Counted from the stretch's first letter, positions 21,971 through 56,691 are shown. The stretch is 64,000 nt of DNA from Eledone cirrhosa (GCA_964016885.1 OZ024741.1:323640001-323704000); one strand, 5' to 3'. Program-made: numbers and translations. Notes: generated by a model from the sequence alone, not told the origin.

Positions 21971-23127
21971 ATATATATATATATATACAATACATTCATA
22001 CATTCATACATACAATATACATACATACATTCATTCATACATACATAAGTATATAAAAGATCATCTATATTTGTTTCACTGGATTCGATATTTATCCGTT
22101 TGCTGTATAAGAATTCTAAGCTGTAGATTCTTCATGTGAAGACATTTTTCGCAAGATTAACCTATTTCTCCAGTCTACTGTCATAGTTTCATACACAAGA
22201 CGTTTACCATTTTCTTCACTCGACCTTCAATAATATTTCCATATACTATTTTCTATTACTATTTTCTATAGAATATAATATATATTTGGTCTACTTTACC
22301 GTAATGGAATTTCTGTTAATAATCACTTATCACTGATAAATGACTACCTTAACTTCCAATAGAATCATTGGGCGCCGTTATTCGGCGGGTCTTTGGCATT
22401 TTTGACCTGGCGGTTCACCACCCTTCTTCTTGTTTTTACCACAGCTTATATCTTCCAAATAAAGAGAGAGAAAAAGAGAGAAATATATATATATATATAG
22501 AGAGAGAGAGAGAGAGAAAGAGGGAGAGAGAGAGAGAGAGAGAGAGAGAGAGAGAGAGAGAGAGAGAGAGAGAGAATGAGAGAGTGAGAAAGACAGAGAG
22601 AAAGGGAAAGCAACGGAATGTGATTTGAGAGACAAATAGATAAAGATTGAGATAGAGAGGTAGATAGATAGATAGATAGATAGATAGATAGAGAAACATC
22701 GATGCAAGTACTGGATTGGTATTATTTATCGACCCCAAAAGGATGAAAGACAAATTTTATTTTAGTGCATTTTGAATTCAGAGCGCATCTAACCGGAAAT
22801 AACACCACAAAACATTTTATCTGACGCCATAATGCCTTATTCATAAATAAAGCCAGCAATTTTTTGAGTAGTTTATTATATCAATCTTTGAAGGACAAAA
22901 TGTAAAGTTAATCTCAATGAGATTTGAGCTACGCATGTAAAAGGCCATCCGATGTTCTAATTATCCTGCCAATCCACCACTCTTTATAAATAGTAATATA
23001 AAAAGCCATAAAAATGCGACAAAATATTTTGTCAAAAGGCAATGACGAAACCACTGCCTTATGTATGTATGTATGTATGTATGTATGTATGTATGTATGT
23101 ATGTATGTATGTATGTATGTATGTATG

Positions 23128-26100
23128 TTATCTTTTTCTCTTAATTTCGAGTATATTTTTTTGACCGGCCACCTTCCTGGTGGCAAGGTTGTAAAAGAAA
23201 ATAAATTGTCATCCCTTGAATCGCAAGAATGTTTTGCAAATTTTGAAGGTGCCAGCTATCGCATCCATTTGTAGACTATGAATTAGGGAGCTGCGCTCTT
23301 TGTCCGCAAATCCAAGTTCAGTCATACTTTGGTCCAAGCGGGTTGGTATAAAACCCGTAGCTCCAATAATGATGGGTATGAAGCTAAAGGTGTATCTTGG
23401 ATACTGGATTTGTAAACTCCTCATCAATGGTCCGTAGATGTCCTCCTTCTGACAACGTTTACATGAAGTGGGCAGCTGATCTCCACAACAGAACACGTTT
23501 TCAATGTGTGGTCCCAAACAAGAATATCAGGCCGGTTGTGCTTTAATTTGATGGCAGTTTTTATTTTCAGTTTCCACCAGTATTCCTTAGTGCCATCTGT
23601 CTCAATATATTCTTCCTCGTTTGTTGCTAATTTTGTTTTCCGAAGTGCGTTCCAGATGGTTCTAGCTATCCCATCGTGTCTCATGGGGAGGTAGTAGCGA
23701 GATGACATTCTTTCGCAGCTGGCAACAATGTGGCTTACATCCTCGATCTTTGTTTTACATAGCCTACATTTATTGTCAGCTGATGGCCCTCCCCTTTTGT
23801 GCAGCAGATATTTGGTAGGGAGTTCTTTTTCCTGTATTGCATAGAGATATCCCTCAAGGTGTGATGTCATAAACTTGTCGGAACTCCATGCCAGGCTTTT
23901 TGAGTGGTTTATCCTCTCTATGGTCTGTGTTTTTACGTCTCAAGTATCCATGCACAACTTTTTCTGTAAATTGGTCAATTTTTTCATCTTCTTTGAACAT
24001 TGAATAGGATCTTCCGATTTCTCTGGGTGATAGATTTATATCAGTCTTTATTCCATATCTCTCCTCCAGATCAGTGGCTATTCTAATGATATGGTCTTTT
24101 TCATGCTCATAAACCTGGGCAAGATGGTTGCCAACCTTTTTTCTCTGTTGAAGATGTTGCTTCAGTGTTACTTTCCGGGTCTCATATGATGTTAATATGG
24201 ATTTTAGACCCCGGCCACCTTCTTTGCGTGAGAAGTATAGCCTATCCACATCACCATTGATGTTAAAGTTCCCAGTAACACTGAGAAGTTTGCGAGTTCT
24301 AACATCCATCTCACTTAGTTCTTGCAATGACCAGTTCAGCAGGCCAAATGTTGGCGTTAGAATTGGCACAGCATAAGTATTGTGCGCAATGTATTTGTTG
24401 TACGCTGATAGTTCTGATGACCATATTTTTTTTACTCTTCTGAGATATTCAGTTCTGGTTCTCTACGTATTTATGGGTCCATCATATCTGACATTCTCAT
24501 CCTGTCCAATATATCTGTAGTTGTCACCTGACTGTAGAGGTTGTATTGTCAGGCCGTTCATCTCTAGATTTCACGTTTTACTGCCAAATATGCACACTTG
24601 GACTCACCAAATTTCATTTTAATGTCTGTTGAAAATTGTGTAATGAGGTCCAATTGTTTCTTGATGTCATTGATATTTGGCCCATACAACTTCAGGTTAT
24701 CAACAAAGAAAAGATGGGAGATACTTCAGGACCCACTTCTTTGTCCACCTTGTTTCCTGAGTAGGTAAGATAGTGGATTTAGTGAGAGAACGAAGAGTAG
24801 CACCGAGTAGCCCTGAAAGATGCCCTTCTGGTAATGTATCTTATCAGTCTTAACTTGCTCCTTCTCACCTCTAAGGATCGAATTGGTGTACCAGTTCTTA
24901 GTCAGACGTTCAACAGCAGCTACCAGAGGTTGTGGGACTTTGGCTAACTGTAAAGCCTTAACAATCCACCCATGAGGTACACTATCAAATGATTTTTGAT
25001 AGTCCAGCCGCACCACAGTCATGTTTCTGCGATTCTTTGTTGTTTTTTCTTGAATCATTTTATTAGTTAGTAGGTAATCTATGCAACCCCACACCTCCCT
25101 CTTTCCACCAGCTTGTTCAGGTGTTATGATGTTGTTGGTAGCACAGTGATCCTGTAAGAACAGGTTAAGGCACCCACTATATAATTTATACATGATGTTT
25201 TGGCAGGCTATTGGGCGGTAATTTTTAGTAAGGGTGGTTTGGCTATTTTGGGGAATGAGGAGAGTAGTGGCAGTTGATAACAATCTGGGCAGTTCCTGTG
25301 GTAAACAGCCGTATGAGATATTACCGATAGAAAGTGAAATACTTCAACCAGTATCCTGTAATGAGGTCTGGGCCTAGTGATTTCCTATTCGACATTTTCT
25401 GTAGAGCTGTTTCCAGTATTGACCCATCTATGTCATATTGTTTTGTCTGGAAATTTTGGCAGTAGTCCTGTTCCAGTTCTTTTAGCCAATTAGTTTGTCT
25501 GTTGAATCCGTCATCCGTTTCCCATACAGATCTCCAGTAGCTCTCAACCTGTTCTTTTGAAGGGGTATCATTTACAGAGATTGAGCTTTTGCCACCGAAG
25601 CTGCGATAAACTGATTTAGGATCTCTGGCAAATAATCTATTTAGCACTTGTCGTTTTTGTGCTGTTGACTTATATTTTAGTATTTCTGTTGTAGCTGTGA
25701 GTTGTTGTTTCAACTGGTGTAATTTGGAGTTTAAAGTTTTAAATTTTGTATCTCCAAATCGTCTCTCTAACCTTTTTTAGGTCTTCCTGGTGTCGTGTGA
25801 AGTTGCTCTCTATGCTGCATTTCATAACGACTGCGATGTGTGAGATACTTCGTCGCAGGGACAACATTTTGCTTTTTAAATTTCGCATCCACGCTGGTTC
25901 AGGCTTTTTGTTTGTATCTTGATTGCGTGGTTTTAGATGTTTGTTATATGATAGCAATGTGACAGCTGAAACATATAACAAAATGTTAAGCGCTTCAAAT
26001 GTCGTTTCTACACCTTTAGATCGTATAGCCTTCAGATAATTGTCAGCTATTTCGTTCACCGCTTCCAATTCCAATTTAGTGGGTTCTTTACTGATTCTGG

Positions 26101-55096: not shown

Positions 55097-55735
55097 ATGT
55101 ACATAATTTGAAAGAGTACTGGTTGACTGTTCCAGTAAAAAACCCAATAAAATGCAGGCATAACAGACCAGATATGATATGGGACAGGGAGAAGAAAGCA
55201 TGCACAGTAGTGGAAGCTAGATGCCCAGCAGATGCCAATATTATATCAAAGATTAGCGAAAAGGAGAATATTTATGCAGAACTGATGAGAAATCTGCAGA
55301 TACTCCACCCTGATTACACATTCAGATTTATGCCTGTGATTATTGGGGGCACTGGGGTATGTTAGTAACTGCCTCAATACAAATCTTGAGAAGCTAGGCT
55401 TCACAGTGACAGAAAAAACACAACTAGTTAGGAAATTACAAGTACAATCCATTAATAGAACAGTAAAAATATGTAAAACATTCCGAAAATGTTGCATCTA
55501 ATAACAGCATATACACATGTTGCATCTAATAAAAGCATGTACACATGCACACATACAACTCAAAACATACACATCAACACATACAATAACATCCACATCT
55601 ACACATGCATGCATGCAGACATACATAATCTACCTAGTTGATGTGTAAATTCCAATGAGAGAGTCTTGTGTCTATGTTAGAAACCGACTCTCTCTCTGTT
55701 GGGAAAACATTTGTGAAATTATAAAACCAGAAGAA
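55097..55735 (+). mobile_element. 5'-truncated R4 family B copy 3
   Basis: REL domain (RHNRPDMIWD) and 3' UTR ending ...CCAGAAGAA followed by CATA repeats. Confidence 0.92.
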
Positions 55736-56691
55736 CATACATACATACACACACACATAGATACATACATAGACACATACATACACACATACATATATAC
55801 AAACATACATACATTCATACATATATACATACATACATACATACATACATACATACATACATACATATATACTTATATATATATACATACATACATATAT
55901 ACTTATGTATATATATATATGTATATATATATATATATATATATATATATATATATATATATATATATATATGTATGTATGTATATATATATATATATAT
56001 GAGATATATTGACATTTCTTAGAAACCAGATCTGTGGTCGCAACGTTGTGTGCAAACTTCAACATATATAATTATATTGATATTCTTAAATTTATTAGCA
56101 GTCGTTCCGATATAACCGATGCCTATTTGATTAATATTAGATGTGACGGTGGTTGCGTAGAAAGCGATATTTCCAGGCAATCAATATTGACTGGAATTTT
56201 GTTAGGGGCGAGAACATTTTTATGTTCTCTTTATGTTTGGGTTTTGTATCTGTGTTTATGTTTACGCAATGTAAAATCTTATAGAAGCATTTTGCTAGAA
56301 TATAGACAGATAATATATGTATCATACTGAAATAAATATTTTGGTCGATATGATCGACTAAAACAGTTGAAGTTAGTGCCTCAGCATGAATGAAACCAGT
56401 AAAAGAGTTTACACACACACACAAACAGACACACACACATATATATATATATATATATTGATAATCTGTAGTACTGGGACTGGGAAGACCACTAACCAAA
56501 TAAGTACTCGATTCATGGTATGATGCAAAGCGGATATATTAGTGAATATAGAGGATCGACCGCGAGTTTTTCGGTTTCGGCTAACTATCTCTTCTAGAAG
56601 ATCCTCTATTTTTACTAGTATACACATACACACACACACACATATATATATATATATAAATATATATATATATATATATATATATATATAA

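Follow-up and report, generated by a model that had tools for sequence, protein, structure and literature searches.

Two divergent R4/Dong-type retrotransposon families set in (CATA)n arrays in one orientation in Eledone cirrhosa

Copies of two divergent R4/Dong-type retrotransposon families, here called A and B, lie against (CATA)n microsatellites in a 64,000-nucleotide stretch of the Eledone cirrhosa genome (GCA_964016885.1, OZ024741.1:323640001-323704000; hereafter the window), which raises the question of whether the tetranucleotide is a target that these elements seek or a tail that they make. The original prediction, drawn from this DNA alone, proposed an orientation-specific CATA lineage whose specificity is common to both families, and our analysis supports this proposal. 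It is highly probable that A and B insert within (CATA)n in one fixed orientation, likely through sequence-specific target-primed reverse transcription, as part of an old branch of R4/Dong elements that seeks tetranucleotides. The evidence comprises the layout of the open reading frame (ORF), with reverse transcriptase (RT), CCHC knuckle and PD-x-E endonuclease, together with CATA on both sides of the elements, its strand, the fixed phase of the 3′ join, extensive 5′ truncation, and relatives flanked by CATA or CTTA.

CATA at element ends across the genome

We queried the genome (3.0 Gb) with each terminal 155-185 bases of the two families, cut at the junction so that the flanks could not bias the ranking. 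The first look gave at least 282-1494 candidates per end, and the best 30 of the 40-41 loci listed per end were sampled, each set including the window's own copy. A 16-base flank was assigned to the CATA class if the repeat accounted for no fewer than half of its 4-mers. In element orientation, 103/120 sampled junctions were of this class (B 3′ ends, 25/30; B 5′ ends, 25/30; A 3′ ends, 25/30; A 5′ ends, 28/30), with CATA adjoining 53/60 full 5′ ends of A and B together, and none of the 120 ends had the TATG orientation. Because random 16-mers in the window were CATA-class in only 0.4-0.5% of cases (TATG-class, 0.35-1%), chance is excluded as the source of the CATA flanks. Among loci picked by their 5′ end (n = 40), 34 were near full length and reached the 3′ end; 26 of these 34 passed the CATA test at both ends, and most failures were degenerate arrays.

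The 3′ join is tightly phased. An exact CATACATA begins at the join in 23/30 B and 16/30 A 3′ ends, and the three intact 3′ junctions in the window all read AA/CATACATA, as originally predicted (a slash marks the join). Short and variable extra bases are found at 5′ ends (TCCA in 14/30 B; TAAA in 10/30 A). Copies are 93.5-99% alike in A, compared with 94-97% in B, from which A appears to have been active more recently. Restriction-site-associated DNA sequencing of a different sample (X5) gave 446 reads that break at 23850 and continue into TATG repeat.

CATA at 5′ ends bears on a different explanation, in which the repeat is a 3′ tail made by the element and reaches 5′ ends only through tandem chains or chance landing in earlier tails. 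CATA confined to 3′ ends, the pattern named in the original prediction as pointing this way, is not what we observed. In addition to the full 5′ ends, 28/42 truncated 5′ ends (17/21 in A, 11/21 in B) have CATA upstream when 30 bases are tested strictly, with TATG at 0/42; these are the copies truncated within 1.5 kb among 60 loci picked by their 3′ end. The tail explanation fails here because an element-made tail cannot place CATA upstream of random truncation points. It can draw on the 32/60 5′ arrays that have another A or B 3′ end, or an end of the retroposon here called element C, within 200 bp upstream, and on some truncated copies without 5′ CATA, a minority to which B copy 3 in the window belongs. 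Yet 28/60 arrays have no such neighbour, the chains mix A, B and C, the reversed orientation is seen at 0/162 ends, and the background is below 1%. Stacking is common, but needs targeting to arise, and we regard a tail origin, already contradicted by the 5′ counts, as very improbable. As heavy 5′ truncation would predict, contig depth summed over family A is about 65 times higher at the 3′ end than at the 5′ end, although this figure is not a copy count.

Broad insertion followed by survival in neutral, microsatellite-rich DNA would also leave elements beside repeats, and the genome is indeed very microsatellite-rich, with other young long interspersed nuclear elements (LINEs) in repeats too. 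However, the window has 8 CATA arrays against 45 of TA and 25 of CA, yet A and B choose CATA, and a young RTE family chooses TA. In this RTE control, which was selected by protein, 3′ flanks were CATA in 0/29 and TATG in 1/29 loci and mostly (TA)n (1/30 loci lacked the end motif, hence n = 29). Passive build-up is also contradicted by the fixed strand and the phase bias, and we give it next to no credence.

Protein layout, proposed insertion route and relatives

In both families a single ORF encodes RT, then a CCHC knuckle, then a C-terminal restriction-like endonuclease (RLE). Locus L129 of family A retains a 1149-aa open frame with RT (FVDD), CCHC knuckle and RPD..E endonuclease motifs. A profile search and alignment matched RVT_1 and zf-RVT and located the C-x2-C..H..C and RPD..E motifs, which are conserved in the 17 rows displayed of the 34 aligned. 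No Cys/His finger pattern was found in the N-terminal alignment, including the L140 frame, and none of the 34 aligned proteins gave an Exo_endo_phos match indicative of an apurinic/apyrimidinic (AP)-type endonuclease. A and B have 52% protein identity over RT-RLE, and the closest named protein is from Argonauta hians. The predicted model of L129 (predicted local distance difference test score, pLDDT, 81) has R2 structures as its best matches (Foldseek E 9e-34). Its N-terminus is predicted with good confidence to form three helices, a helical domain conserved across the family; Atlas ranks Rap1-Myb and Myb clusters (0.75-0.84) highest for this domain, which is no more than a lead, and a structure search with a 122-aa N-terminal model (mean pLDDT 59) returned generic helical matches only, none above Z 5.7.

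Target-primed reverse transcription driven by an RLE is established biology of R2 and R4 elements (PMC13586686). In A and B, the endonuclease would nick the TATG strand after G (TATG^), and the free 3′-OH would prime cDNA synthesis at the RNA 3′ end (...AA). The 5′ end would then be joined loosely, with short extra bases (CCA or TCCA in B; AA or AAA in A), and the predicted three-helix, Myb-like N-terminal domain may help to read the repeat. Because each insertion would leave CATA on both sides, new targets would arise beside old elements and stacks would build up.

Specificity could instead come mainly from RNA, with a run-on CATA tail of the transcript pairing with any nicked TATG strand and priming cDNA while the endonuclease itself is loose. 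The fixed 3′ phase, the CATA downstream of every source copy and the CATA-like 3′ untranslated region (UTR) of B would fit this route, which also accounts for one target in two proteins of such limited identity; moreover, according to a review, homology arms in the RNA can redirect some R2 targets (PMC13586686). The 3′ flanks, however, are often degenerate from their first bases and differ among copies, as expected of old target DNA and not of a copied tail, and the conservation of the N-terminal helical domain also speaks against a loose protein. We consider it unlikely that RNA is the main source of specificity. Protein and RNA mechanisms can act together, and each may have a share in site choice.

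Tetranucleotide flanks extend to metagenome relatives, of which 23 loci were collected and 20 inspected at their ends. (CATA)n is found at both ends, in the A/B orientation, of three contigs (L225, L226, L231), and (CTTA)n in six: at both ends of L223, at the 5′ end of L221 and L222, and at the 3′ end of L227, L228 and L232. The CTTA 3′ junctions read C/CTTA, which fixes their phase; because the join falls before C, they suggest that the opposite strand is nicked at TA(T/A)G^. A degraded element (L243) has (TAA)n upstream, a single, weak flank, one element (L235) lies in what looks like 18S rDNA, and the other twelve loci show no CATA/CTTA-type array or have their ends missing.

The seven tetranucleotide-flanked loci in the tree form one clade with A and B, apart from insect Dong-like proteins and L243 (SH-like approximate likelihood ratio test, SH-aLRT, 99; FastTree support 0.85). 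The main tree was a quick search without bootstrap on 44 of 119 rows, and a smaller tree had 22 rows; L228, L229, L230, L232, L233, L234, L238, L239 and L242 were left out as partial or redundant. Holding A, B and the Argonauta protein together was rejected (approximately unbiased test, p = 0.005; the group was defined after seeing earlier trees). A and B are thus not sisters, and for this reason the CATA preference likely predates the present host. B is nearest to the CTTA elements (SH-aLRT 87; support for CTTA monophyly, 58), and CATA is likely ancestral because it is found on several branches. The shared specificity proposed for the window is therefore not local to this genome. Judging from the domain layout and a tree with unnamed references, A and B probably belong to the R4 clade.

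A broader view, to which we give an even chance, is that these elements represent an old, widespread, undescribed R4 sub-clade specialised on C(A/T)TA, with CATA ancestral and a one-base switch to CTTA in a B-related lineage. In this genome, LINE families would then partition the microsatellites, with R4 taking CATA, C the opposite strand, RTE TA and Tx1 ATT, and would promote the growth of the arrays that they target.

Three side observations concern R4-like sequences. An old R4-like fragment at 5688-6830 in the window groups with insect-type proteins and the TAA-flanked L243, and not with A or B, in a short alignment (43% of columns). The R4-like element L235 (1-10, 4396-4472) has a 3′ flank that we take to be the 3′ end of 18S rRNA, and the 10 bases repeated identically at its two ends may be a target-site duplication. 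A GGAYGTG motif lies 16-33 bases from the 5′ end in A (L129), L222, L223, L225 and L226 (5/8 R4 5′ ends); together with the TCAGT start of B, which is presumably initiator-like, it is a possible internal promoter.

Several points weigh against targeted insertion by an R4/Dong branch. The CATA test fails at 17/120 full ends, many of them degenerate arrays, and the loci were taken as the 30 most similar to the window copy and are not a random sample; L032/L033 and L037/L038 resemble duplicated sites. The strict test fails at 14/42 truncated 5′ ends (10/21 in B); inspected by eye, about eight of these stop in CATA that is short or degenerate, and about six show none. The CATA-like B 3′ UTR makes one truncation call (L002) less certain. 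At A/B loci, no empty site was observed: reads from four runs aligned on 22690-27460 showed no joint across the element, but these alignments skipped the repeat junctions. Target-site duplications are unreadable inside the arrays. The N-terminal domain has no Pfam Myb match, the Myb call being a lead from an Atlas score of 0.84. The references of the quick, unbootstrapped tree are unnamed homologs, insect proteins and one 18S-inserted element, with no named Dong or R4, and the metagenome flank labels come from nine contigs in about three assemblies of unknown hosts.

Arrays, element C and other repeats in the window

The coordinates and array contacts first described for family A, for the 5′ end of B copy 1, for both sides of B copy 2 and for the 3′ end of copy 3 all hold (Table 1). 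The GTATG noted 5′ of B copy 2 represents a single remaining TATG unit; a 45-bp end of element C comes next, and then (TATG)16. New to the list are a truncated A piece with CATA as its 5′ flank, an older B-like piece and element C. The ends of the window's full-length A copy were set from copies across the genome, and ORFs are broken in all window copies of A and B. The 3′ end of B copy 1 is missing, the copy stopping within its 3′ UTR and giving way to an inverted internal piece, and the truncated 5′ end of copy 3 is preceded by (TA)n and AT-rich sequence.

Table 1. Families A and B, element C and their arrays, in window positions
Feature	Position	Strand	Remarks
(TATG)17 perfect array	23060..23127	.	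(CATA)n at family A 3′ end; junction GAGAAAAAGATAA/CATACATA
Family A, full-length copy	23128..27286	-	4159 bp; ORF in pieces; RT, CCHC knuckle, RLE
TATG array, degenerate	27287..27349	.	At family A 5′ end
Family B internal piece, inverted	27972..28087	+	Fused to broken 3′ end of copy 1; 96% to 30374-30259
Family B copy 1	28083..32044	-	5′ end intact; 3′ UTR cut short; ORF broken
TATG array	32045..32140	.	Common to B copy 1 5′ end and element C 5′ end; (TATG)20 at 32045
Element C	32141..32747	+	607-bp non-autonomous retroposon, opposite orientation to A/B; fixed 3′ end, variable 5′ truncation
TATG array, degenerate	32748..32783	.	At C 3′ end
Older B-related fragment	47895..48685	-	76% to B
Family A piece, 5′-truncated	48684..48909	-	5′ flank is TATG array 48909-48924; own 3′ end lost
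C-like copy, diverged	48924..49473	+	TATG array on each side; 5′ part in inverted orientation (32139-32275 matches 49052-48924); remainder by eye
TATG array	49474..49565	.	At B copy 2 3′ end
Family B copy 2, full-length	49566..53874	-	755-aa open RT-RLE stretch (49802-52069)
Element C 3′ end	53878..53922	+	45 bp; inserted 4 bp from B copy 2 5′ end
TATG array	53923..53988	.	5′ of B copy 2; (TATG)16 at 53925-53988
Family B copy 3, 5′-truncated	55097..55735	+	3′ junction AGAAGAA/CATACATA
CATA array, degenerate	55736..55897	.	At copy 3 3′ end

Copies of element C across the genome (L161-L220) are young (93-100% alike). Their flanks are TATG-class at 16/30 3′ and 18/30 5′ ends, with (TA)n at many others, a looser repeat choice; TATG precedes 26/30 C 5′ ends. 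The 3′ end can, by eye, form a short hairpin, and C may also supply arrays. The RTE family was considered as the autonomous partner of C and rejected, there being no DNA similarity in 10/10 full copies. This young family (L334-L373) retains many intact frames of 1056 aa; its copies have a short (TAGA)n tail and are mostly bordered by (TA)n on either side.

The window also contains two copies of an L1/Tx1-like element with AP endonuclease and RT. One lies on the minus strand (37358-43450) and the other on the plus strand (57509-63274), and (ATT)n borders each copy on both sides. Intended as a control, this element gave 30/30 ATT flanks genome-wide, a result of little weight that is biased since both queries contained the ATT repeat. 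A 180-bp repeat resembling a short interspersed element occurs at 8881-9061 and in at least seven more places, and has inserted into the Tx1-like copy and into B copy 2 (at about 52587-52778). A minisatellite of 56-57 bp lies at 19400-19893, with an inverted second piece at 16367-16568.

Comparison with known systems

R4/Dong elements insert in ribosomal DNA (rDNA) or microsatellites, Dong using (TAA)n across most insects, molluscs and cnidarians (PMC7998251); some HERO families also target microsatellites (PMC4640811). Octopus Dong-R4 elements are abundant and recently active, with five families and 1129 insertions (PMC13282606), are ancient in coleoids (PMC8967140), and include one full-ORF Dong consensus noted in an octopus annotation (PMC9115989). 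The accessible portions of these three articles describe no target site for them, the word "target" occurring 0 times in that of PMC13282606. A and B are probably among the families annotated as Dong-R4 in octopus. Our literature searches turned up no description of R4/Dong elements that target CATA or CTTA; entries in Repbase or Dfam may already record the target.

It is not yet settled how RLE retrotransposons switch targets, and the answer would be valuable for building tools, because R2-type proteins are in development for gene insertion. Relatives that are about 50-57% identical and one target base apart (CATA and CTTA) make the question testable by domain swaps and, if the broader view above is true, would offer a naturally occurring comparison from which to learn how target choice is written into a protein with Myb and RLE domains. 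Our reading also corrects the general view that Dong elements of molluscs use (TAA)n, and accounts for stacked repeat clusters in a genome of cephalopod type, a setting in which Dong-R4 has been reported as a major LINE class with recent activity.

Dong elements (Bombyx Dong, DongAg, snail DongBg, ostracod Dong1/2) resemble A and B in having RT with RLE, no N-terminal zinc finger, insertion into microsatellites and a short helical N-terminal domain, which is Myb/SANT-like in Dong (PMC7998251). A and B differ in their target, (CATA)n with (CTTA)n in relatives, whereas Dong uses (TAA)n (PMC7998251, PMC3812793), which places them outside Dong in the strict sense; their RT clade is also separate from the insect proteins, at 31-32% identity. 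Dong and R4 carry 5′ ribozymes like that of hepatitis delta virus (PMC3774820), whereas a strict descriptor of our own, run without a positive control, found 0 in nine 5′ ends; an Rfam scan gave no ribozyme match, only sub-threshold microRNA and snoRNA matches, nearly all on microsatellites.

Waldo elements (WaldoAg1/2, WaldoFs1) share with A and B a microsatellite target, ACAY, which includes ACAT and hence CATA (PMC3812793), and in the accessible text ACAY targeting was previously known only for Waldo. The same source files Dong under elements with an AP-type endonuclease. Waldo has such an endonuclease, unlike the C-terminal RLE of A and B, and the common target would be convergent. R2 offers the closest solved structures (9dou, 9nl3, 8gh6) and the same target-primed mechanism, but A and B show 16-20% structural-alignment identity to it, lack N-terminal zinc fingers and lie in a microsatellite instead of 28S rDNA, features that set them apart from the R2 clade. 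Found genome-wide, A and B belong to a known kind of retrotransposon with microsatellite specificity, within which they represent a new target variant and probably a sub-clade.

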